Assembly (NCBI GenBank): GCA_937928235.1
Contig: CALEZE010000008.1
Coordinates: 1 to 36,011, forward strand
DNA: 36,011 nt
Source of the DNA: an uncultured bacterium
Lineage (GTDB): Bacteria; Patescibacteriota; Microgenomatia; UBA8517
Direction: 5' to 3'
Position 1 is the stretch's first letter, and every line of letters begins with the position of its first letter. Shown here one piece after another: positions 1,351 through 18,014 of the stretch. The translations under genes and the position numbers were made by a program. Under the pieces are notes generated by a model, which saw only the letters and a list, made by a program, of their open reading frames with translations, did not search any database and was not told where the DNA came from.

Positions 1351-2141
1351 TTTTGTCCAAGCCAGAGAACTGCATTAATAACATAGTGTTTAACATATCC
1401 GTGATAAATTTTGCTCGAGGGAATTAGTTTCTTCCACCTATCTTTGGCCGTTGCCATTTTCTTAAAAGTGGCTCCGTGGTAGTGAGTAATTACTGATTCA
1501 GGTAGGTAGTAAACCTTTAGTCCTGCTTTCCATGTTTGCCTGCAATAATCTATATCTTCAAAGTAGGCAAAATAACGCTCATCAAGTAGGCCCACTTTTT
1601 TAACAGCCTTTGGTGTCATCAAAAAAGCAGCACCGACGACAGCATCCACGGTCGTTGGGTTCTTTCCTTTAGGAGCAAATTTTTCAAAAAGACCCTTTGA
1701 GCCAAACCAATATTCTTTTATCGCTCGCACTATTGTGGGGAAGTGATAACAGGAAGATTGCAAACTTCCGTCAATGTTTAAAAGCCTAGAGCCAATAACG
1801 CCTGCATCTGGAGTTTTTTCTGCAAACTCAACTAACGAGCCGAGTGCGTTCTTCTTAACCAAGGTGTCATTGTTAAGAAGAAGTATATATTTCCCTTTTG
1901 CCTTCTTCGCCCCTTGATTGTTTGCCTTTGCATATCCGTAATTTCCATCATTTTCAATTAGCGTAAAGTTTTTGTCCTTTTTCTTTAGTTTTCTTAAGGC
2001 CTCGACGGAGCCGTCCTTGGATCCATTGTCTACCACGATTATCTCTTTTTTTATTTTGGAGCCTTCTTTTTTAATTGAGTCTATACACTCAACGGTGAGT
2101 TTCTTGTTGTCGAGATTAACAATTACAATGCTTAGGTCCAT
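1320..2141 (-). CDS. Family 2 glycosyltransferase (COG1216 / rhamnosyltransferase-like)
   Basis: LSIVIVNLDN...VVDNGSKDGS...NYGYAKANNQG...LLLNNDT, the classic GT2 (GT-A) N-terminal motifs of the WbbL-like group. Confidence 0.75.
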   Translation of the reverse strand: MDLSIVIVNLDNKKLTVECIDSIKKEGSKIKKEIIVVDNGSKDGSVEALRKLKKKDKNFTLIENDGNYGYAKANNQGAKKAKGKYILLLNNDTLVKKNALGSLVEFAEKTPDAGVIGSRLLNIDGSLQSSCYHFPTIVRAIKEYWFGSKGLFEKFAPKGKNPTTVDAVVGAAFLMTPKAVKKVGLLDERYFAYFEDIDYCRQTWKAGLKVYYLPESVITHYHGATFKKMATAKDRWKKLIPSSKIYHGYVKHYVINAVLWLGQKWQKLLNHKG

Positions 2142-2143
2142 TT

Positions 2144-3031
2144 TTAGGAAAACCGTGCCAAAAGTGCCTCGTCAGAAATTTTGCTTTCTTTTCTCTCTTT
2201 GTTTCTAGCTTTGATTGCTGCAGAAAGTCTCATTAAAGCCATTAGTATTATTCGGGAATACCCAGGATGCCTAAAAGTTCGCGATGTGATACCTGCTATG
2301 TGCTTTCTAAATAATCCCGGACTCGTTATGTTTTTCCAGTTAAAAAGAAGCTGGTTTCGCTCTTTGATTCTAGCGACCATTGTTTTGTCAAACCTCCCAA
2401 TAGTTGTTTCGTGTTCATGGTCAACTACGGACTTTGGCTCCCAAACAAGCTTGTATCCTCTCTTAGCAGCTCTGTAAGAAAGATCCAAGTCTTCCCAGTA
2501 AAAAGGTGACAACAATTCATCGTCCATACCTCCCAGTTTCATCCAAATATCTCTTCTAAAAACCCCGCTACCACCATTTACCCAGAAAGTGTCATGGGCT
2601 TCTTTGCTCTCTTTCCCTGGCTCAAACAATATATATCCGCCTTCAAACTTCCCTCTTGCCCAACCATAACCTCTTTCGTGAAGTGACACTGCAAACACGC
2701 TTTTGTCTCTGAAGTGTTTGTGTGTCTCTTCTAAAAAGTTTTCTTCAGGAACCACATCATTGTTAATAAGACAAATGAGGTCCCCTTTTGAAGTTCTGGC
2801 ACCAGTATTTACAGAGGCGGAAAAACCACGATTTTTTGTGTGCTTGATTAGTTTTACATCCGGAAAGTTTTCTTTCATAAAAGAAACAGTGTCGTCAAAA
2901 GAGCCATCGTCAACAACAATTACTTCTAATATCTGATTTTTCTTGTTTTTTTGGGCCTTTATAACCTTAGGTAGATTCTTTTTGAGAAGATCACGCCCGT
3001 TGTAGTTTGGTATAACAATTGATACTTTCAT
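2144..3031 (-). CDS. Family 2 glycosyltransferase (COG1216-like)
   Basis: VSIVIPNYNGRDLL...VVDDGSFDDT...NRGFSASVNTG...LINNDV motifs. Only a 2-nt gap to the next gene. Confidence 0.75.
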   Translation of the reverse strand: MKVSIVIPNYNGRDLLKKNLPKVIKAQKNKKNQILEVIVVDDGSFDDTVSFMKENFPDVKLIKHTKNRGFSASVNTGARTSKGDLICLINNDVVPEENFLEETHKHFRDKSVFAVSLHERGYGWARGKFEGGYILFEPGKESKEAHDTFWVNGGSGVFRRDIWMKLGGMDDELLSPFYWEDLDLSYRAAKRGYKLVWEPKSVVDHEHETTIGRFDKTMVARIKERNQLLFNWKNITSPGLFRKHIAGITSRTFRHPGYSRIILMALMRLSAAIKARNKERKESKISDEALLARFS

Positions 3032-8333: not shown

Positions 8334-9829
8334 TTCTTCGACACAAACGCCTTGAAGCTTTTTTTAATATCTTGTGTCAACGAGGCTCCTTGTAAAAGAT
8401 ATATTGTCGTTAAGTATGTGGCGGCGCCGACCCCCACAATCACCCAAACGGATGTCAAGCTAACTGGTAGCCTTGCACGCAATATGAGTGCCACCACCGA
8501 CAACAAAAGTGCCGCCAATGCCGGCCTGGCAACAGAATCTATAAGAGAAAACTTCACATACTTTCTGGCTATAATTATTGCCACTACCGAACTTGTACCC
8601 ACCAAAGCATAGCCTGAAGCAGCACCAACCACCGAATAGTTTAGAGCCAAAAATGGAACAAAAAGCCAGGTAAGGACTGTCCACATGACCATAAGTTTAA
8701 ATGTCGTTTTTATCCTTCCGATGGCGTTAAGCAAGTTTGTTAGTTGAGTTGTTACAGCAGCAAAAAGCGTATTGATTCCAATGAGACCAAGTGGCAAGAG
8801 TGCAGGCGCCCATTTTTCATATCTTGGAATAATATCTACCAGAAGAGGTGCCAAAACTAAAAGCCCGGCAAGTGTTGGAAAAACCAAAAAGCAAATAAAG
8901 AAGATACTTCTTGTAACAGATCTTTCAAGATGGTCCTTCTCGTCTTGCATTCTGGAAAATGCAGGGAAGGTTACTTTTATAACATGATCCATAAAAAATC
9001 TTAGTGGCGCCTGTCCCCATTTTTGCGCCCAACCAAGTAAACCAACTCCTGCAGGCCCTAGTATTCCTCCCAGCACAGCAGTCATTCCATCATCCTTGAG
9101 AGTGGCAAGAAGCGTGTTTGCTTGATAAGGAACACCGTAGTTAAGAAGCTTCTTGAGTGGTTTCCTGGAAAAGGCAAACCCTGGCTTCCATGGACGAAGA
9201 AGATATATTGCCACTAGCCCAACTACGCCTCTGGCAAGTACCGCATAGGTAAAACTCCTGACACCAAAGCCTTGCCACGCCAAGTAGACAGCAACCACAT
9301 TGTAGACTAGATTTTCAAGAACCTGTGGCAAGACCAATTTCTCAAAGGATAATTCCCTTTCTAGAAGTACGGAGGGGATTGTCTTTAGGGAAGACATAAA
9401 AAGCGAAGCACCCAATGCGTACAAGAGAAAGGTGCCCTCGGCACTAAGTGAATAGATTCTTGTTAGAACCGGGGTCGCGAAAAAAAGTGCTGCCAGAAGT
9501 ATCAATACGAGGACCTGTTGAATAGTAAAAGTGGTCCTGAGGTCGGCCTCGTCAACTTCTTCTTTTTTTTGAATAAGGGCAGCTGCCAAGCCTACATCGC
9601 TAAAGTAGGCAAGAAAGTTAACAACTGCTGAAACCACCCAAAATACCCCAAACTCACTGGGCTCAAGAAAAACGGTTAAAAAGCCGGTGGCAACCAAAGA
9701 AAGTAAGCTCAAGAGGAAGGTGCGCCCAGTTAAAACAACCACACCCCTGATCGCTCTTTCTTTAATGCTTTCAAGCGTAATCTCGGAGGTTGGGTCCAGA
9801 TGCTCTTCTGTCGCCTCTACTTTAGCCAC
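8330..9829 (-). CDS. wzx: MOP-superfamily oligosaccharide flippase (Wzx / polysaccharide biosynthesis protein)
   Basis: About 14 hydrophobic segments in 499 aa. N-terminal RGVVVLTGRTFLLSLLSLV...FLAYFSDVGLAAALIQ is typical of the Wzx/RfbX family. Confidence 0.65.
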   Translation of the reverse strand: MAKVEATEEHLDPTSEITLESIKERAIRGVVVLTGRTFLLSLLSLVATGFLTVFLEPSEFGVFWVVSAVVNFLAYFSDVGLAAALIQKKEEVDEADLRTTFTIQQVLVLILLAALFFATPVLTRIYSLSAEGTFLLYALGASLFMSSLKTIPSVLLERELSFEKLVLPQVLENLVYNVVAVYLAWQGFGVRSFTYAVLARGVVGLVAIYLLRPWKPGFAFSRKPLKKLLNYGVPYQANTLLATLKDDGMTAVLGGILGPAGVGLLGWAQKWGQAPLRFFMDHVIKVTFPAFSRMQDEKDHLERSVTRSIFFICFLVFPTLAGLLVLAPLLVDIIPRYEKWAPALLPLGLIGINTLFAAVTTQLTNLLNAIGRIKTTFKLMVMWTVLTWLFVPFLALNYSVVGAASGYALVGTSSVVAIIIARKYVKFSLIDSVARPALAALLLSVVALILRARLPVSLTSVWVIVGVGAATYLTTIYLLQGASLTQDIKKSFKAFVSKK

Positions 9830-11606
9830 GCTTTGATTTTACCACCCGCTTTTTCTTTGGGGAACTTTTTGGGAGTTTGCCTTTCCACAACGGGTAGCTT
9901 AGTAAACCAATCCAAGTTGCAAGTGATATGAGATCGCTCACTTTCCTCACCGGAGTGTCTTCAAGCCGGACTTCAATATCGTGTTCTCCCTTGGTTACAA
10001 CAAACCACATCCTTCCCCACTTTTCTTCTTCTGGAACAAAAGTTTCCGTTTCTTTTCCGTCTACATACACTGTCCAGCCTGGAAACTTAAATATACCAAG
10101 CCTCACCATATCAATATATCCACGCGCATTAAGTTTCACCCTTGCCCAATTTGTTCCCTGTTCTGTGCTCATTATTTCTCCTTCCCCGGACATAAATTCT
10201 GCTAAGTTTTTCATTGGTTCCTTTGGCGCAGTTTCGGCCCAAACAGGAAGGTAATCATAAATTCCGGCGGTTTGCTGTAAATCCCATGCAGCATTTGAAA
10301 ACTTTTCCTCATCTGTTAGTTTTCCCATCCTGCCGTTTTCTGGGACAAAGTAGTTCCAGTTAAGAATCACCAAACCAAGCGCAAGCACAATAGCCACCTT
10401 TTTCCCAAGCCTGTTTTTTTGCCAAAGATAAACAAGCGACCCAGCTATAAATGAGAATGAGAAAATAATTATCGTCAAAAACCTCCAAGAAAACTGAAGA
10501 TAGCCAAGTGGCGGAATTAGTTGCCAGATAAAAGTTGATCTGCTATGCGCAAGAAATGTAGATACCCAACCAACGGCAAACAGCAACAAGAGCATTCCGT
10601 AAATTGCTTTCTCCTCTTTCTTTTTTGCCAAACGAAGTTTAAAGGCACTCCAGGCACCAATGACCAAAGAGAGAATCCAGTGAATGTGTCCAACCTGGAA
10701 GGACATCCCGTCGTCTTTGACATCCCACACAGAAGGGCCATACCCCCAAAATCTCGAAACAAGAAGCTGCTTTAGGCTCACAAAGTGTGCGGTGTAATCG
10801 TAGTATCCAATAAGTTGACCCCTAATTTGTGTATACTTATTCTCCACCACTGCCGGAAATGTAAAAAATGCTGCCAAACCAAGTGCAAGCAAACCTGCTT
10901 TAATTAAATAGGGGAGAGACTTCCATGATTTTTCTCTCCACATCCAGAAAAGTGCCCAGATTACGGTCAATGGGCCAAAAATAAGAACCATGAGATTGTG
11001 CGACGTAAGGAGTGCAAAGGTGCTTAAAGCAAGACCGCCAATCCATTTGGTTAAGTTTTTCTTTTCTGTGACTATTTTGTAAGTAGTCCAAAAAATAAAT
11101 GGGAAGATTGCAAGAGCCCACGCCTCATTCATCGCCCCCCTGACATAAACATCCACAGCATGATATGGCGCCCAAATATAGAAAATTGCAGAGACTACCC
11201 CACCAAGTCGTTTAAAAAATTCCTGTGCCAACAAATACATCCCAACCCCGCTGACCAGGAATGACAAAGCAAACAACAGCTTTGCCGTGCTAATAAAGGA
11301 AAGCCCTAACACTCTTATCCCCTGCCCTATCAGATAGGGGAGAGGTGGATAGAAATTAAATAGTGGAAAACCAAACCCGTACCCCATATCCGGCACCCAT
11401 CGACAAGGAATCTGGCCATCTGCAAAACACTTCTCCATTTGAAGTTGCCTCATCATCTGCAAATCATCGTGCATATTGAAGTATCCCTGCTGGAAAAGGA
11501 GTGTCCGACTCGCCAAAATTGCAAAAAAGAGAACGATGACAACCGGCCAAAAATGAGGATTAGAATAAATTTTTCGAAGCCATTTCATCACAACTGATAA
11601 TATCAC
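9822..11606 (-). CDS. GT-C-like membrane protein of the YfhO / 'PTPS-related' (COG5617-like) type
   Basis: N-terminal MHDDLQMMRQLQMEKCFADGQIPCRWVPDMGYGFGFPLFNFYPPLPY, many TM helices, and a C-terminal FKFPGWTVYVDGKE beta-rich domain. The track start at 11606 is GTG (GTGA overlap with the upstream stop). An alternative ATG lies at 11588. Confidence 0.5.
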   Translation of the reverse strand: MILSVVMKWLRKIYSNPHFWPVVIVLFFAILASRTLLFQQGYFNMHDDLQMMRQLQMEKCFADGQIPCRWVPDMGYGFGFPLFNFYPPLPYLIGQGIRVLGLSFISTAKLLFALSFLVSGVGMYLLAQEFFKRLGGVVSAIFYIWAPYHAVDVYVRGAMNEAWALAIFPFIFWTTYKIVTEKKNLTKWIGGLALSTFALLTSHNLMVLIFGPLTVIWALFWMWREKSWKSLPYLIKAGLLALGLAAFFTFPAVVENKYTQIRGQLIGYYDYTAHFVSLKQLLVSRFWGYGPSVWDVKDDGMSFQVGHIHWILSLVIGAWSAFKLRLAKKKEEKAIYGMLLLLFAVGWVSTFLAHSRSTFIWQLIPPLGYLQFSWRFLTIIIFSFSFIAGSLVYLWQKNRLGKKVAIVLALGLVILNWNYFVPENGRMGKLTDEEKFSNAAWDLQQTAGIYDYLPVWAETAPKEPMKNLAEFMSGEGEIMSTEQGTNWARVKLNARGYIDMVRLGIFKFPGWTVYVDGKETETFVPEEEKWGRMWFVVTKGEHDIEVRLEDTPVRKVSDLISLATWIGLLSYPLWKGKLPKSSPKKKRVVKSKRG

Positions 11607-13159
11607 AACTTAAAAAGATAAAGTGTTTCTTGAGGGCCGTGGTGAACAAAGGACTCAACACCCTCCGGCCTGATGGCCTTTGGGAAAGCAGCAACAAGTT
11701 CTAGACCAAGCTCTTCTGGTGAAGCTTTAAGTCTTGTGCTGTTTATAACAAGATAGGTTTTATTTCCTGCCTCCTTACTCTCCAAAAGGCTTGATGGTAC
11801 TTCATTCAGGTTTAGCCCAACCCCTATGACGGTAATTTCTGGACGGTGATTCAAATACATTTGTAACCCATCTGGTAGGGTGCCAAAATACCCTTCTGTC
11901 CCTACAACGATCTTTTCGTCCGGGTTTGAAACAAGCTCGCTTTCCAAAATTTCTGCAGTTTCTCTTATCCCAGTTCCAGAGGTCCACTCTTCTAGGTATC
12001 CGGACCTCATGACTCTCGGCAAATTTGCCTTTTCCGCATCGTTTAGTAAAACATAATTAAACCACAATGCGTGAGCAACAAAACCCGCAATCAATATCTC
12101 TAATAGCACTTTTCTCTTTTTATAAAATGCGTTTTCTTTCGCGAACAAACTCGCGGCCAAAATTATCCCTGGTGCAAGAGTAAAAAGGACATACCTCGTT
12201 GTGAACGCTTTCGCATACATTGACTGCACCATAATGGGAATAAAAACCCATAGACCCAAGACAAAAGTTTCTTTATTTCTCTTCAACAAACCTGAAACAA
12301 GAGCCAAAAAGAAAGCAATTACTAGAAACGAAGGTCCTAGTGCCCAAAACCATTCGAGAACCCTGTCCATGTGGAAAATAAATGGATCCCTTGGGTTTGT
12401 CCACAAGTGAGAAATGGGCAAAACATAGTCCTTGTTTCTTGTGCCGATTAAATGGAAATTGGTCCCAAGTCTTAGAATGTTGTACATACCATAACCAATC
12501 ACCAATGTTGGTAGCAATAAGCCAAAGGACTTCACAAATCGACTAAAAATCCCACTCAGTTTTTTAGGCCATTTCGCCAAGAGCCAGACAGACGGAAGTA
12601 GTATTACAAAAAATACTGCAGGCGACTTAGTTAATAGTGCACCGCCTAAAGCAAACCCTGAGATCATTGCATAATCAAGCCGTAAAGATCTTGTGGTTAG
12701 TGTCGCAAAAAACAGTAACCACACCCCAAACATAGCAAGCATGGAATCAACCAAACCGATCCTGTCAAAAAATACAGCAAAGGGTGAGATTGCATAAATC
12801 AGCGACGCGACAAGGGCCGCTTTTTTAGATTTAAAAAGCAGAAGAGTTAATGCAAAGACCCCAACAAGTGTACCAAGCCCTGTAAGAACAGAGACAATTC
12901 TCCCTGCAACAAGTGGGTCCGAAAAAAGTTTAAACATGGGAATAACGGCCCACATAAAAAGTGGTTGCTTGCCGTCAGACAAGGGTAAAAACCTCAAAGA
13001 AGGTTCAGCTCTCATTACCTGGGCCCAGCGTATATATATAGCCTCGTCGGCGAAAACAGGCAATGAAGTTATGTTGTATGTCCGCAAAAAAAGCGCTAAA
13101 AGAATAATTCCGAATCCTAGAAAAATTGTACTCCTCCACTCTTCAACAAGCTTTTTCAT
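11603..13159 (-). CDS. ArnT/PMT_2-like GT-C membrane glycosyltransferase (GT39/GT83-like)
   Basis: LRTYNITSLPVFADEAIYIRWAQ (first-loop acidic motif), more than 10 TM helices and a C-terminal soluble domain ending ...ETLYLFKL. The start abuts the stop of the upstream DPM1-like GT2 with zero spacer. Confidence 0.7.
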   Translation of the reverse strand: MKKLVEEWRSTIFLGFGIILLALFLRTYNITSLPVFADEAIYIRWAQVMRAEPSLRFLPLSDGKQPLFMWAVIPMFKLFSDPLVAGRIVSVLTGLGTLVGVFALTLLLFKSKKAALVASLIYAISPFAVFFDRIGLVDSMLAMFGVWLLFFATLTTRSLRLDYAMISGFALGGALLTKSPAVFFVILLPSVWLLAKWPKKLSGIFSRFVKSFGLLLPTLVIGYGMYNILRLGTNFHLIGTRNKDYVLPISHLWTNPRDPFIFHMDRVLEWFWALGPSFLVIAFFLALVSGLLKRNKETFVLGLWVFIPIMVQSMYAKAFTTRYVLFTLAPGIILAASLFAKENAFYKKRKVLLEILIAGFVAHALWFNYVLLNDAEKANLPRVMRSGYLEEWTSGTGIRETAEILESELVSNPDEKIVVGTEGYFGTLPDGLQMYLNHRPEITVIGVGLNLNEVPSSLLESKEAGNKTYLVINSTRLKASPEELGLELVAAFPKAIRPEGVESFVHHGPQETLYLFKL

Positions 13160-13897
13160 CTATTTATATTTTCCAAGAAATGCATTCAATCTTACTCGCA
13201 AAAGATCTCGCAAACCCTCCCAGGAATCTTTTATGGGGTTAACCTTTGTCCCCTCTTGGTGTCTCCACTCAACAGGGACTTCTGCTACTTTAAATCCTAG
13301 TTTCCTGGCAATATATAAAACTTCCAAATCAAACCCCGCAGAAACTGAGGCTCCCATTGCACTTGCCTCCTCACCAAAAACTTGCATCTTTTTAAATATT
13401 TTTCTTGCAGCGTCTTTCTTGAATGCTTTGAACCCACACTGGGTGTCTTTAAACGGCAAACGCAAAACTATGGTTCTTAATAAAGAAAACCCAAAGGCCA
13501 TTGTCTTTCTAATGAGTGGGGCTGCGGCCCTGCCCTGTCTTGAGCCAATTGCTATGTCGTACCCCTCCCCTACTTTTTCTAATAGTTTTTCGACTTGATT
13601 TATTGGAGTTGCCTGGTCCATATCCGAAAACAAGATTATTTCACCCTTTGCAGCAAGCATGCCTGTGATAACTGTTGGTCCCTTACCTCTATGTGGTTCT
13701 GCCATAACACTAAACCCTTCATGCTTTTTTGCAAACTTTTCTGCCAACGCCAGTGTCTTGTCACCCGACCCGTCATCTACAATTAATACCTCCCATGTGT
13801 ATTTTTGCTTTTTTAGGTACCCATAAACCCAATCCAACACTCCCCTTTTGAGATTGCCCTCTTCATTGTATGCAGGAATCACTACTGATAATTTCAT
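13160..13897 (-). CDS. Polyprenyl-phosphate sugar synthase (DPM1 / ArnC / Alg5-like GT2, soluble form)
   Basis: LSVVIPAYNEEGNL...VLIVDDGSGDKT...FSDMDQAT...DIAIGSR...KDTQCGFKAF...DLEVLYIARKLGFKVAEVPVEW, the signature set of dolichyl/undecaprenyl-phosphate glycosyltransferases. Confidence 0.75.
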   Translation of the reverse strand: MKLSVVIPAYNEEGNLKRGVLDWVYGYLKKQKYTWEVLIVDDGSGDKTLALAEKFAKKHEGFSVMAEPHRGKGPTVITGMLAAKGEIILFSDMDQATPINQVEKLLEKVGEGYDIAIGSRQGRAAAPLIRKTMAFGFSLLRTIVLRLPFKDTQCGFKAFKKDAARKIFKKMQVFGEEASAMGASVSAGFDLEVLYIARKLGFKVAEVPVEWRHQEGTKVNPIKDSWEGLRDLLRVRLNAFLGKYK

Positions 13898-14028
13898 TCA
13901 AACCTTTCCCTTCTTTGGACGGTTATTCCGCCGAACTCTACCTCCTCGATGACCTCCCCTATTCCCTCGTGCCTTACGAGCCAGGCCTCGAGCCGTTCGG
14001 TGTGAGTCGGATCAGTCTCATAGAGAGT
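13894..14028 (-). other. 44 open codons plus TGA that continue the frame of the 14029..15462 gene past its TAA; likely the severed (or read-through) C-terminus of that GT-C gene
   Basis: Hand translation after the TAA (14031..14029) reads TLYETDPTHTERLEAWLVRHEGIGEVIEEVEFGGITVQRRERFE*. The terminal TGA (13896..13894) overlaps the ATG (13897..13895) of the next gene, as at other junctions here. VIEEVEFGGITVQR resembles IDEEWEVAGITLFK at the C-terminus of the paralog 16425..18014. There is no in-frame ATG/GTG/TTG. Confidence 0.45.
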
Positions 14029-15462
14029 TTACAAACTTTTCACCATTGCTTCCTCAACTAGGCCGCACAATCCCCCTCCACACCTCTCAGTACCCTGCCA
14101 CAAAAACAGATAGTCGTATGCGTGAGGGATAACGGGTGGAACATAAACATCTACATTAAATTTATCAAATTCCTTATCCCTGGCGTCTTCAAAAACCCAA
14201 TCAACAGCGGCCATCTGATTTTTAAAGTATATATCTGTTTCCCCGTTTACCGGATTAACTAAGTAATCTTTTACAAGTTTTCCGTTTGGAATAAAAAATA
14301 AAAACATAAAAACCACTACCAATACCATGCCTTTCCTCTGCCTCCAGAGTTCTCCCAGTAATAGTGCTGTTAACAATATAAACGGGAGAAAGTACCCAGA
14401 AATATAATATGTGTAAACTGCACCATGATTTCCGTGGAAAAAGAGGTATCCCAAGACTGGGGTTAGGAGAAAAATGGCAAAAAGAGGGGTCAACCCTTTT
14501 TTGAATTTCTTTCCGTTTGCTATGTAGAAAAGAGTCAAAAACCCAAAAACAAACTTAGCAACTTGTGGACTATTGATAAATACAAGATTACTAAAACCAC
14601 TCCAAAAAAACTCGAGTCTCGTTTCAAGCAGGTATTTTGTTATACCACTAAACGCCCTCTCTTCTAAGAAAAGTTCTGAGAAGTTATTAAAAAGTATATG
14701 GCCATGTCTAAAATCAAACAGGATTTGCGGAAGAAGAGTCGCAAAGAAGACTGCAGCGGAAAGTAAGGCAGTTTTAATACCAGGAGCATTTCCATTTTTA
14801 CCGCCTGAGGTCTTGTAAATTGCAACCTGCCAAATGGTAAATATGGCGAAAAGTGGAATATAAAAGACCGCACTTGCTGCCTCAAAATGCAAAGAGATCC
14901 CTACAATTAAGGCCGCCAACACCCACCAACGCCCCCCTTTTCTCTGGACTATCTTCCACAGAGCCCAAAGTAGAACAACGCTACTCAAGAGTATCGGGTT
15001 GGGATTAGAAAGCCATCTACTTGTAAGAAAAATGTGATACGAAAAGGCCCCTATTATTGCGGCCAATATGCCAGCTTCTTTGCTGTGCATTGTTTTGCCC
15101 AGGTAGTAGAGCATAAAAACTGCAAATGTCGAAAGTGCTGCTAAAAACACCGCTGGATAAACGGGATTCCCTTGGCCTAAGAAATAAAAAGGCGCCAAGA
15201 GATAATAAAAAAATGGGCCCAAAAAAATACCAGGCAGGCCTGTAACGGGGCCGATTAGAAATAGTCTGCCGTTCTTGATTAAATCCCAAATAACTAAGGC
15301 GTCGCGCCCTTGGTCAAAATAAAAACCCAGCAACTCATCAACCCTGTAAACTCTCACAAAAAAGGCCGCAATTAAAATAAAAAGTACACCTATATACTCG
15401 CTTTTGTCTTTTTTGAAATTTTTCCCGAAGGCTTTCTTCCAAGAAGAAATTTTATTTAGCAT
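14029..15462 (-). CDS. ArnT/PMT_2-like GT-C membrane glycosyltransferase, as annotated ending at an in-frame TAA
   Basis: RVYRVDELLGFYFDQGRDALVIWDLI parallels RLFRIDEYLTFLGDEGRDVIVVRRLL of 16425..18014. More than 10 TM helices, and the C-terminal domain contains VYVPPVIPHAYDYLFLW. Confidence 0.65.
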   Translation of the reverse strand: MLNKISSWKKAFGKNFKKDKSEYIGVLFILIAAFFVRVYRVDELLGFYFDQGRDALVIWDLIKNGRLFLIGPVTGLPGIFLGPFFYYLLAPFYFLGQGNPVYPAVFLAALSTFAVFMLYYLGKTMHSKEAGILAAIIGAFSYHIFLTSRWLSNPNPILLSSVVLLWALWKIVQRKGGRWWVLAALIVGISLHFEAASAVFYIPLFAIFTIWQVAIYKTSGGKNGNAPGIKTALLSAAVFFATLLPQILFDFRHGHILFNNFSELFLEERAFSGITKYLLETRLEFFWSGFSNLVFINSPQVAKFVFGFLTLFYIANGKKFKKGLTPLFAIFLLTPVLGYLFFHGNHGAVYTYYISGYFLPFILLTALLLGELWRQRKGMVLVVVFMFLFFIPNGKLVKDYLVNPVNGETDIYFKNQMAAVDWVFEDARDKEFDKFNVDVYVPPVIPHAYDYLFLWQGTERCGGGLCGLVEEAMVKSL

Positions 15463-16435
15463 ATTTCCTGCAAGTCTCTAGCACTTTTTCCACAGCTTCC
15501 TCGTAAGGAGTGTTCTCAATCCTCGCCCCGGAAGCAGCAGCGTGCCCTCCTCCTCCTAACTCAATTGCAATTTTTGAAACATCGAAATTAGTACGCGATC
15601 TAAATGACACTGAAAGATTCTTTTCTTCCGTCTCAACCATTACTACCCCGAAATTTGTCCCCTCCACACTCTGAAAAAATTCACTGGCAAGTCTTTCTTT
15701 TGCATCAACGGGTTTACCAAATTTTTTGTAAAGTTCAAATGGTGCAGCCACCCAAACAAAAGAGTGTTCGTTTTCTATTTTTATTCTAGATAACATTTCA
15801 GCCCAAAACGCAACCAGTTTTTCTGAAACCGTAAAGTTGATATTTAAGTTTATCTTGTCTTTATCAGCTCCCTTCTCAAGCAAGTTTGCGGCAAGCCTTA
15901 GCGTTTCAGGTGTTGTGCCTGAATAACGAAAAGAGCCCGTGTCTCCAATTATGCCGGTCAACAGACTTGTCGCCACAGCTTCATCAATAGTCACCTCCCA
16001 GTCTTCGAAAACTCTGTAAAGAACCTCAGCTGCTGAGTTAACTTCCCAATCAACAAGGTTTGCGCTTCCATATTTCGTATTAGTTTTGTGGTGGTCTATA
16101 ACAACAATATCTATGTTCGGTTTCTTAATATCTTCTGAGGCGGCAACCATTCCCCAACTGGCAGAATCTATACAGATAAATAAGTCATGTTGAGAAAAAT
16201 CGTATTTTTCAAAATCTACAGTCTCTATGGCTTCGAAGTTTTTCAAAAAACTCAAATTCTCACTCGCCCCTGTCGGGCAGATAACTGCCACATCTTTCCC
16301 CATTGTCCGCAACACCGAATACATGGCAAGGGCCGACCCTACAGAGTCCGGGTCAGGATTCCTGTGACAATTCACAAGAATTCTGTCGGCGCTTTGGACT
16401 TTGCTAAGAATTTCCTCGGACTCTTTATAATTCAT
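15452..16435 (-). CDS. nrnA: DHH/DHHA1 family phosphoesterase (NrnA-like oligoribonuclease / pAp phosphatase)
   Basis: HRNPDPDSVGSALA (DxD), VVIDHHKTN (DHH) and GGGGHAAASGA (DHHA1 GGGH) motifs. 11-nt overlaps with both flanking GT-C genes. Confidence 0.75.
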   Translation of the reverse strand: MNYKESEEILSKVQSADRILVNCHRNPDPDSVGSALAMYSVLRTMGKDVAVICPTGASENLSFLKNFEAIETVDFEKYDFSQHDLFICIDSASWGMVAASEDIKKPNIDIVVIDHHKTNTKYGSANLVDWEVNSAAEVLYRVFEDWEVTIDEAVATSLLTGIIGDTGSFRYSGTTPETLRLAANLLEKGADKDKINLNINFTVSEKLVAFWAEMLSRIKIENEHSFVWVAAPFELYKKFGKPVDAKERLASEFFQSVEGTNFGVVMVETEEKNLSVSFRSRTNFDVSKIAIELGGGGHAAASGARIENTPYEEAVEKVLETCRKYAK

Positions 16436-18014
16436 CGTTGTGTACTAATTTAAACAGGGTAATACCTGCAACTTCCCACTCCTCATCAATCTTACTCCAT
16501 CCAAAGTTGGCTATTTCGGCTTTGGGGTTACTTGTCGGCTGACACTTGTCTTTCGGGAGTTCGCAAATCACAAAAAGCTGCTCTGTTATTGTCTCGTCTG
16601 CCCTTTGTGCATCAATACCCACAATCGGGGCTCCATCCTTTTCCAAAAAGTACCAATATGCACCTTCATAATTTCTTTCCGCAATAACTGCAATATTAAA
16701 AGGTTCGCCGCCCGCCTCTTTGGTAATTTTTTCTGCCACCTCAATACTTCTTTGCATTTGTCTGTTTGGCGGCTCAAGTAGCGGGTTTTGTTTCAAGTTA
16801 AAAATGAAAAGCGCTGCCAAAACCAACCACACCACCATCTTTCCGGACTTACGCAAATTTTGCATTGCTCCATCAGCAAAACCTCCAATTAGCAAAAAAG
16901 GTGCAGCAAACATAAATCCATAATAGTGGTCGTATACTTGTTGTTTATATAACCCCAAACCAACAAGGCCTGTGGCAATCCAAAGCAATATTATCGTGTA
17001 ACCTGACACCTCGTTTTCTTTCAGCCTGTACCTGTTTAAAAGAAAGAAAAGTGAGGGTATTGATAAAACTGCCAGAACCCAACCTCCAACCTTTTCATCC
17101 CTTGCTCCAACCAACCTGGTTGACACCTCCTCGGCTATCTCTGGAAGTTTGGGTAAAGCATTCCAGGGTCTAGCTGAAACAGTTGTCTGCCTTTTTACAA
17201 AGAAATCGCGCATTGCAGAGAAGTTTCTCCAACCATGACGGGCATCAAAGATCACCAGCGGAGACATCATTAGGGCAAATAGACCAGCTGAAACCAGCGT
17301 GTACTTTATGAACCGAGGTCTAAAAGTTTCTGATTTCTTGTTTTTTATGTAAGTTATGAGCCAGTAAAACCCAAGGAGCGGTGCGAGAAGAAGCCCTAAG
17401 TAATGCGACTGCAGTGTCGCGGCAAAAGAGATTACTGCAACGATAAGCCATTTTAGTTCATTCTTGTGCCACATTCTCCAAATAGCATACACACTCAAAA
17501 GTGCAAAAAAGGGCATGATGTTGGGGTTCCAAGAAGACCGGGAATAAACAATAACTGTGGGAGAGACAGCAAAAAGTGCCGAAGCCACAACGGCTGCCAC
17601 TTTCCCAAACCATTCTCTAGCAACGAACCAAACAAAAAACACAGTTGCGACACCCAAAAGGGCAATAAAAATTGCAGGGCCCGCCGGTGAATAGTTCGCG
17701 AAATACAAGGCAGGAGCTATTAAATAGTAGTACAAAGGCCCAAGATACATGTTTCCAATGGAAGTCCCTGGACCAACCAGTATTGGGTCAAAATTAACAA
17801 GGAGTCTCCTTACGACAATAACATCCCTTCCCTCATCTCCAAGAAATGTCAAATACTCATCAATCCTGAATAACCTTAAAAATGCTGCCAAAAGCAAGAT
17901 GGCGACAAGAATTAAAAACTCCCGAGGGTTTGCCTTAACCCAAACTACAATTTTGTTAGCCCAAAAACGCTCTTTTAAGGTTTCCTTATAATTTTTTAGT
18001 TTCTTTTTGCTCAT
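16425..18014 (-). CDS. ArnT/PMT_2-like GT-C membrane glycosyltransferase
   Basis: RLFRIDEYLTFLGDEGRDVIVVRRLL first-loop motif, more than 10 TM helices and a soluble C-terminal domain ending ...EEWEVAGITLFKLVHNDEL. ATGA overlap with the upstream DPM1-like GT2. Confidence 0.7.
   Translation of the reverse strand: MSKKKLKNYKETLKERFWANKIVVWVKANPREFLILVAILLLAAFLRLFRIDEYLTFLGDEGRDVIVVRRLLVNFDPILVGPGTSIGNMYLGPLYYYLIAPALYFANYSPAGPAIFIALLGVATVFFVWFVAREWFGKVAAVVASALFAVSPTVIVYSRSSWNPNIMPFFALLSVYAIWRMWHKNELKWLIVAVISFAATLQSHYLGLLLAPLLGFYWLITYIKNKKSETFRPRFIKYTLVSAGLFALMMSPLVIFDARHGWRNFSAMRDFFVKRQTTVSARPWNALPKLPEIAEEVSTRLVGARDEKVGGWVLAVLSIPSLFFLLNRYRLKENEVSGYTIILLWIATGLVGLGLYKQQVYDHYYGFMFAAPFLLIGGFADGAMQNLRKSGKMVVWLVLAALFIFNLKQNPLLEPPNRQMQRSIEVAEKITKEAGGEPFNIAVIAERNYEGAYWYFLEKDGAPIVGIDAQRADETITEQLFVICELPKDKCQPTSNPKAEIANFGWSKIDEEWEVAGITLFKLVHNDEL

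Follow-up and report, generated by a model that had tools for sequence, protein, structure and literature searches.

The minus-strand GT-C glycosyltransferase gene at 14029..15462 of the window (the whole 36,011-nucleotide stretch analysed here) ends on paper at an in-frame TAA, which most probably reflects an error of sequencing or assembly at low coverage, rather than a real allele. We consider an error the most likely cause because the TAA sits in a short patch of base errors of the sequencer type and a near-identical contig from a second assembly carries the gene intact. Read in this way, the gene would be an ordinary, intact GT-C glycosyltransferase of 522 aa whose last 44 codons were lost through a base-call or consensus error. 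The features concerned are as follows.

14032..15462, minus strand: first 477 codons of the GT-C gene, a PMT_2 / GT39-like, ArnT-fold membrane glycosyltransferase (Pfam PMT_2, E 9.5e-9; orthologues; AF2 model)
14029..14031, minus strand: in-frame TAA (Tyr in 34/35 and Phe in 1/35 aligned orthologues; TAC in the sister assembly)
13969..14048, minus strand: patch of 9 substitutions relative to the sister contig NODE_1918, 80 bp long and containing the TAA
13897..14028, minus strand: tail of 44 codons encoding the conserved family C-terminus (orthologue alignment, dicodon score, AF2 model)
13894..13897, minus strand: ATGA junction between the family's natural TGA and the overlapping ATG start of the GT2 gene downstream (sequence)
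13160..13897, minus strand: downstream GT2 (DPM1/ArnC-like) gene (Pfam Glycos_transf_2, E 2e-26; identical in both assemblies)

The interrupted reading frame

The open reading frame is terminated by the TAA at 14031..14029, past which the same frame stays open for 44 codons, TLYETDPTHTERLEAWLVRHEGIGEVIEEVEFGGITVQRRERFE, up to a TGA (13896..13894) overlapping the ATG (13897..13895) of the GT2 gene. This arrangement is as the preliminary description gave it, including the absence of any in-frame ATG, GTG or TTG within the tail. The apparent gap of 131 bp, which had been called anomalous, is indeed the sole outlier among the 12 junctions of the gene string, the others ranging from -28 to +21 bp. 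Its GC content, put at about 55% by hand count, is 54.5% as compared with 42.2% for the window, placing the tail in the top 0.5% of 132-nt windows; amino-acid composition accounts for roughly half of the excess (46.8% expected vs 40.6% in the rest of the gene). Foreign or non-coding DNA was rejected as the reason for the GC-richness, as the intact allele on NODE_1918 is equally GC-rich across the same stretch (55.3%). With an in-frame dicodon score of 0.59, the tail is typical of real gene ends in the same genome (0.49 +/- 0.40). The GC-rich 'gap' is coding sequence.

Homologues and predicted structure

Searches with the fused 522-aa query returned more than 1000 homologues, the best of which are 500-530 aa long and cover 97-100% of the query, bearing out the proposal that the tail is the C-terminus of the family. 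Orthologues are 48-61% identical to the GT-C protein. Tyr occupies the column of the TAA in 34 of the 35 aligned orthologues and Phe in the remaining one; a stop was found there neither in these 35 nor in 4 shorter hits, which are shortened at the N-terminus only. The tail retains the family-invariant residues E482, D484, R490, W494, R518 and R520. In BLASTP against the paralogue at 16425..18014 (E 7e-36), the alignment continues across the stop and sets it opposite Phe, in agreement with the earlier alignment by eye. The similarity of the tail to the family C-terminus is, at the sequence level, far beyond chance.

The PMT_2 profile matches residues 83-212 with 36.1 bits, above the Pfam gathering score of 26.1. 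The AF2 model of the intact allele (pLDDT 90.3, pTM 0.90) has the multi-helix membrane core of a GT-C fold, like that of ArnT or STT3. When it was searched with Foldseek, the best TM-score was obtained for ArnT (5EZM; 0.57, probability 1.00), with further matches to ArnT 5F15, to STT3, including OST STT3 chains (likewise at probability 1.00), and to AglB and PglB. As in the PMT_2 / GT39 / ArnT GT-C enzymes annotated in Woesebacteria and other Patescibacteria, a PMT_2 domain is present, about a dozen or more membrane-spanning helices are predicted, and an acidic DQGRD sequence (D50, Q51, G52, R53 and D54, invariant across 36 sequences) occurs where the acidic motif of the first extracytoplasmic loop sits, and is a putative counterpart of it. 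In contrast to those enzymes, the protein has a family-specific C-terminal alpha/beta domain of about 110 residues with two invariant Cys, and its sequence identity to solved structures is just 9-15%. Its modelled C-terminus consists of a strand (476-482), a helix (488-499) and two further strands (502-510 and 513-520), such that the tail is predicted to contribute most of a beta-strand, the helix and a beta-hairpin to this domain.

Comparison with a second assembly

In the second assembly, ERZ869936, contig NODE_1918 (k-mer coverage 3.35) reads TAC in place of the TAA and encodes an intact protein of 522 aa (cluster mate P0125; ...VPSLYTLYETDPPHPERLEAWLARQ... at the stop region). The Tyr codon suspected behind the TAA was the correct guess. 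On NODE_1918, too, the intact gene (505-2073) and the GT2 gene (2070-2807) share 4 bp at their junction, and the GT2 product is identical to that of the window (exact protein look-up). A third assembly was sought by exact look-up of the GT2 protein and by scanning metagenome contigs for exact 27-mer matches, both of which returned NODE_1918 only; the TAA is private to the assembly of the window.

The two contigs are 99.38% identical over 12,099 aligned columns (12.1 kb) and are separated by 49 substitutions, nine of which fall within 14048..13969, with none in the 1.3 kb downstream and none in the 736 bp upstream. For a single 80-bp window, such a density has a Poisson probability of about 8e-11, and in none of 20,000 permutations did any 80-bp window exceed 6 substitutions. 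The patch extends to both sides of the stop: positions 14048, 14040 and 14039 lie upstream of it, 14029 falls within the stop codon, 14007, 14001, 13995, 13976 and 13969 lie in the tail, and the last 72 bp of the tail are unchanged. Eight of the nine substitutions are A<->C transversions, in both directions, and eight of nine are nonsynonymous (E->A, P->K, Y->stop, P->T twice, A->V, Q->H), two of them replacing near-invariant prolines. The window alleles T486, T488 and H498 contradict columns conserved at 89-97%, the conserved states contradicted in the patch being Tyr (97%), Pro (94%), Pro (97%) and Gln (89%); where the window differs, NODE_1918 keeps the consensus Pro, Pro, Ala and Gln. Isolated differences outside the patch are mostly synonymous transitions at third positions. 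Among all transversions between the contigs, 22 of 26 belong to the A<->C / G<->T class (binomial p = 5e-4). A G precedes only 4/9 patch sites, a weak showing for an 'error after G' bias.

The same kind of A/C patch occurs elsewhere in the other assembly, at conserved residues of a flippase. Three A/C differences at 9013..8986 give K, I and N on NODE_1918 and Q, L and H in the window, the latter being the states of 19, 24 and 23 of 24 orthologues, respectively. In addition, the GT-C protein of NODE_1918 has a W where the other sequences share an invariant Leu, and a 26-bp deletion splits its PTPS-related gene.

Further interruptions and the genetic code

In-frame stops were also sought across the 211 contigs of the metagenome-assembled genome (MAG), inside matches to a single HMM. 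At least five further conserved genes are interrupted, namely the essential pheT (TAG), Nramp (TGA), transketolase (TGA), UvrD (TGA) and a GDP-mannose-dehydratase-like gene (TAG). The stops beyond the GT-C gene lie, in no particular order, at C63:10757, C160:5021, C156:775, C2:1334 and C24:3377. The preliminary description had proposed a check for TAA at conserved positions in other genes; of the candidates examined in the ab initio screens, the GT-C gene alone is interrupted by a TAA, all others by TAG or TGA. Exact look-ups of pheS and of an Nramp neighbour returned no sister contigs, and the best pheT homologue is just 63% identical, so that the pheT and Nramp stops are not polarised. Several candidates were discarded: a TAA seemingly inside prfA is the stop of rpmE, upstream in the same frame; the extensions after C153:553, C120:20705 and C50:1966 look non-coding by eye; and NrdR at C95:2022 has its normal end before its stop.

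TAA terminates 323 of the 610 ORFs of at least 150 codons (53%) and is the commonest terminator in the genome. An RF1-like ORF with PAT and GGQ motifs is present on C198, and an RF2-like ORF on C1. ARAGORN detected 25 tRNAs, an incomplete set with none for Tyr, and among them none with the anticodon UUA. The context of the GT-C stop is UAA-A.

Origin of the stop codon

Among Illumina substitution errors, A>C, C>A and G>T are some of the commonest, the A/C and G/T pairs each sharing a laser; error rates climb toward read ends, and about 20x coverage is needed for errors to be outvoted (Dohm et al. 2008, PMC2532726). The patch resembles such low-coverage base-call errors in MAGs in being clustered, private to one assembly and dominated by A<->C, the near-identical independent assembly carrying the consensus state; its channel-pair transversions are blind to codon position and strike invariant residues, and the other assembly, at its low k-mer coverage, has patches of its own. 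A true TAC (Tyr) would have been read as TAA, as one among nine substitutions within 80 bp that would together be the signature of Illumina confusion between the A and C (equivalently G and T) channels where coverage is poor. For nine errors to persist in a consensus is a lot, unless a single read or a handful underlies the stretch. Many assemblers drop k-mers seen only once, so a patch of this kind needs either bridging by a single read or recurrent systematic miscalls. Also against an error, the natural-looking synonymous differences mark the contigs as different strains or consensus paths, which makes a private mutation possible.

Of the four options listed in the preliminary description, which chose none, that of a population variant or assembly error is favoured by the TAC of the sister contig and by an A<->C cluster that destroys conserved prolines; a recent nonsense mutation fares less well, and stop-codon readthrough and local recoding are contradicted. 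A real, strain-specific nonsense allele (TAC->TAA) that cuts the protein after residue 477 and leaves the tail as a young pseudogenic remnant is unlikely. It would remove most of one strand, the helix and the terminal hairpin of the C-terminal domain, and would uncouple translation of the GT2 gene. The stop does stand in the deposited assembly, the synonymous transitions elsewhere point to distinct strains or haplotypes, a tail that still looks coding would suit a very recent event, and with 13 PMT_2 matches on 12 open frames in the MAG the loss of one paralogue could be tolerated. As in bacterial pseudogenes with a single nonsense mutation, the stop replaces a conserved Tyr codon and is followed by an open, coding-like remnant; unlike in these, linked transversions flank it on both sides and reciprocal patches at invariant residues occur in the sister assembly. 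Relaxed selection after the stop leaves unexplained the three changes upstream of it, the lack of any in the last 72 bp, and the prevalence of A<->C changes in both directions unaccompanied by synonymous transitions. Stops in the essential pheT likewise speak against such an allele.

Programmed readthrough or tRNA suppression, yielding isoforms of 477 and 522 aa, is very unlikely, and still less probable is the specific case of a real TAA partly read through, plausibly as Tyr, with restored coupling to GT2. The tail is open and coding-like up to the native ATGA junction, and the incomplete tRNA set leaves a suppressor tRNA formally possible. A conserved stop with a conserved extension is, however, absent from the orthologues, a sense codon stands at this place in the 99.4% identical contig, no UUA-anticodon tRNA was detected by ARAGORN among the 25 of the incomplete set, and TAA ends more than half of the long ORFs; UAA is generally the least leaky stop codon in bacteria. 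Reassignment of TAA to Tyr, genome-wide or local, is effectively refuted. The column is Tyr in orthologues, and certain codes outside bacteria read TAA as Tyr (NCBI tables 14 and 29); against this, TAA is here the majority terminator and not frequent in frame, the GT-C gene is its sole interruption among the candidates checked, and release factors of both types are retained. Scarcely credible, too, is that a diversity-generating retroelement hypermutated the C-terminal domain in a targeted way, or that a second copy acted as donor in gene conversion: the domain is surface-exposed, with the cluster close to its 3' end, and one allele has A at 8/9 sites, but neither a donor nor anything like a template repeat for the patch was found in the MAG (best non-self hits are chance matches of 12-17 nt), the non-A base is non-randomly C at all eight A-containing sites, and invariant residues were struck and a stop created.

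Implications for annotation

The significance of a sequencing or assembly error at this site is mainly one of quality control. The MAG should be flagged for localized error patches and for six or more in-frame stops within conserved genes, pheT among them, and other odd single-base features in the same genome deserve equal suspicion. A real stop would amount merely to the strain-level loss of one among the PMT_2 matches. We advise that the gene be annotated as a GT-C enzyme of full length (522 aa), coupled to the GT2 gene beside it; the labels of truncated protein, pseudogene and recoding case should be avoided. The full-length protein is most likely what the organism produces, and the native TGA of the gene would be translationally coupled to the downstream GT2 gene via the ATGA overlap.

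Open frame behind the in-frame stop

The GT-C membrane glycosyltransferase gene carries an in-frame TAA, behind which its frame stays open as far as the next gene of the string:

15462..14032 (-), GT-C ORF of 477 codons, ending at TAA 14031..14029
beyond the TAA, up to TGA 13896..13894 (-), 44-codon in-frame continuation (tail), TLYETDPTHTERLEAWLVRHEGIGEVIEEVEFGGITVQRRERFE
13160..13897 (-), next gene, GT2 glycosyltransferase, with ATG 13897..13895

The last two bases of this ATG are the TG of the TGA that closes the tail, and no in-frame ATG, GTG or TTG from which an independent ORF could start occurs within the 44 codons. Across the gene string's 12 junctions, only the 131-bp 'gap' is sizeable; the remaining junctions measure -28 to +21 bp. 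The GC content of the tail, about 55% by hand count in the preliminary description, was computed as 54.5%, in the top 0.5% of the window's 132-nt windows; the intact allele of the sister contig (see below) has 55.3% over this stretch, and roughly half of the excess is explained by amino-acid composition. The GC-richness is a property of the coding sequence. With an in-frame dicodon score of 0.59, the tail is typical of real gene ends of the genome (0.49 ± 0.40). As its statements on stop, tail, gap, GC content and start codons all hold, the preliminary description of the locus was accurate.

The tail as C-terminus of the family

The GT-C protein was assigned to PMT_2 by Pfam. The tail had been likened by eye to the end of the paralogue 16425..18014, with the stop opposite Phe; BLASTP gives the same picture, with an alignment that passes through the stop (E = 7e-36). 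For the fused 522-aa product, more than 1000 homologues were found, the best of which, from Woesebacteria and other Patescibacteria, measure 500-530 aa at 97-100% query coverage. Alignment with orthologues, proposed earlier as a check, showed that they run through the position and carry Tyr (34/35) or Phe (1/35) at the stop column, within the motif LL-Y-TLYExDPPHPERLEAWLxRQxGIGxVEEExxFGGITVQRRxR. The window's tail retains all of the invariant residues E482, D484, R490, W494, R518 and R520, and four shorter homologues, shortened at the N-terminus only, all keep the tail. By these alignments, the 44 codons encode the C-terminus of the family. Modelled with AlphaFold2, the intact allele (pLDDT 90.3, pTM 0.90) has a GT-C fold, for which Foldseek returned a top TM-score of 0.57 to ArnT (5EZM), with STT3-type oligosaccharyltransferase chains among the matches. 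Within the C-terminal alpha/beta domain of the model, the tail provides most of strand 476-482, helix 488-499 and the hairpin 502-510/513-520.

Comparison with the sister contig

A sister sequence came from clustering at 90% identity, which places the called 477-aa protein with a single other member, P0125, an intact GT-C protein of 522 aa encoded on ENA ERZ869936 NODE_1918 (sister contig, L001; 13,397 bp, k-mer coverage 3.35). This contig and the window share 99.38% identity over 12,099 aligned columns; no third copy was found in the sequence collections searched. At the window's TAA the sister contig has TAC, bearing out the earlier suggestion of a Tyr codon behind the stop, and its GT-C and GT2 genes overlap by 4 bp, as at the window's TGA. 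On this comparison, the TAA is private to the window's assembly.

The contigs differ by 49 substitutions in total. Isolated differences, for example at 12650, 10701, 9512, 9503, 9452, 9410, 9218, 9215, 7890 and 4308, are mostly synonymous third-position transitions, the pattern to be expected where purifying selection acts on genuine strain polymorphism. Three adjacent differences at 14785..14787 (GCT, Ala, versus ATC, Ile, in the sister contig) fall within an insertion of the GT-C protein that is lineage-specific, and are unpolarised. Nine of the 49 are packed around the stop within 80 bp (14048..13969), with none in the 1.3 kb downstream and none in the 736 bp upstream; the Poisson probability of this cluster is ~8e-11 for a single 80-bp window, and none of 20,000 uniform permutations placed more than 6 substitutions in 80 bp. 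On the sense strand, 8/9 are A<->C transversions (five C->A, three A->C), and 8/9 are nonsynonymous, giving E->A, P->K (through two neighbouring substitutions), Y->stop, P->T twice, A->V and Q->H. The window's alleles conflict with columns that are 89-97% conserved, at which the sister contig has the family consensus. Among all contig-to-contig transversions, 22/26 are A<->C or G<->T (p = 5e-4). Bidirectional A<->C changes are unexpected from a natural mutational process. The stop thus belongs to a patch that, by its substitution pattern, looks like base-call error. Among Illumina substitution errors, A>C, C>A and G>T are some of the commonest, because the bases of each pair share one laser; the error rate climbs toward read ends, and ~20x coverage is required to outvote errors (Dohm et al., 2008; PMC2532726).

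Elsewhere the sister contig is the deviant one. Three A/C differences in the flippase gene (9013, 9004, 8986) give K, I and N in the sister contig versus Q, L and H in the window, where Q is found in 19 of 24 orthologues, L in all 24 and H in 23; in the GT-C alignment, the sister contig has Trp at a Leu invariant in the remaining 36 sequences. At L001 5456..5508 (window 10433..10511), a 26-bp deletion set among clustered G<->T and T->C changes breaks the sister's PTPS-related membrane protein in two (350 aa and 188 aa); the gene of the window (9822..11606, 594 aa) is intact. The two contigs correct each other at different places, as would be expected of noise in two low-coverage assemblies and not of lineage-specific evolution.

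Stop codons across the MAG

In the MAG (848 kb, 211 contigs, completeness 93.5%, contamination 4.1%), TAA is the stop codon of 323 among the 610 ORFs that reach 150 codons. The MAG has an RF2-like gene as well as an RF1-like gene in which the PAT and GGQ motifs occur. The RF1-like gene (contig C198, minus strand, ~1480..2180) directly follows rpmE (L31) in the same frame and begins at about profile position 100, seemingly without N-terminal domain 1. ARAGORN found no suppressor tRNA among 25 tRNAs, an incomplete set without Tyr; several other amino acids also have no tRNA despite the estimated completeness. There is one tmRNA (tag ADYNSLSLK).

The preliminary description had proposed to look for in-frame TAA at conserved positions of other genes; interrupted genes were sought by an ab initio search for coding-like sequence past stops, followed by HMM scans. 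Five more were found, each with one profile match running across the in-frame stop, which is TAG or TGA in every case:

C63, 9773..11725 (-), pheT, TAG 10757..10759; TIGR00472 covers residues 44-648 of the fused product
C160, TGA 5021 (-), Nramp transporter, one HMM match spans the stop; unpolarised
C156, TGA 775 (-), transketolase, one HMM match spans the stop; unpolarised
C2, TGA 1334 (-), UvrD-type helicase, one HMM match spans the stop; unpolarised
C24, TAG 3377 (-), GDP-mannose-dehydratase-like gene, one HMM match spans the stop; unpolarised

The 13 aligned pheT orthologues are uninterrupted (~650 aa) and have Tyr, Phe, Met, Ile or Leu at the TAG column; an A10 run adjoins the stop. A second deviant stretch of 16 residues, ADHFMLFVFFYIYESQ (~C63:10304..10378), departs from a strongly conserved motif and adjoins a T9 run. 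Together with the TAA of the GT-C gene, all three stop codons are involved, and one of the genes (pheT) is essential; the pattern argues for a noisy draft rather than recoding or a particular regulatory device. On C50 (minus strand), a 497-aa membrane protein, by eye a GT2-like glycosyltransferase, ends in ...EYKVTEKV* at stop 1966, and the same frame repeats ...EYKVTEKV* 33 codons later, which suggests that the 3' end of the gene underwent a short duplication.

Origin of the stop

We consider it probable that the TAA stems from a local error of sequencing or assembly in the draft MAG. This option of the preliminary description is favoured by a stop that is private, sits in an A<->C-dominated patch and faces TAC in the sister contig. 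A real nonsense allele specific to the strain is unlikely: relaxed selection after the stop would not give three changes upstream of it, nor does it fit the unchanged final 72 bp of the tail. The readthrough and recoding also put forward there are contradicted by the orthologues, the sister contig's TAC and the genome-wide use of TAA as terminator. Programmed readthrough or suppression of the TAA is very improbable, with Tyr or Phe in the orthologues, a private stop, and TAG or TGA at the other interruptions; reassignment of TAA to sense, in a genome with RF1-like and RF2-like genes and a family without a stop at this column among 35 aligned orthologues, is hardly credible. A diversity-generating retroelement or gene conversion was rejected because the genome holds no second copy of the patch.

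The TAA is of low biological interest and a useful quality flag for the MAG. According to the structural model, a protein that stops at residue 477 would lack part of its C-terminal alpha/beta domain.
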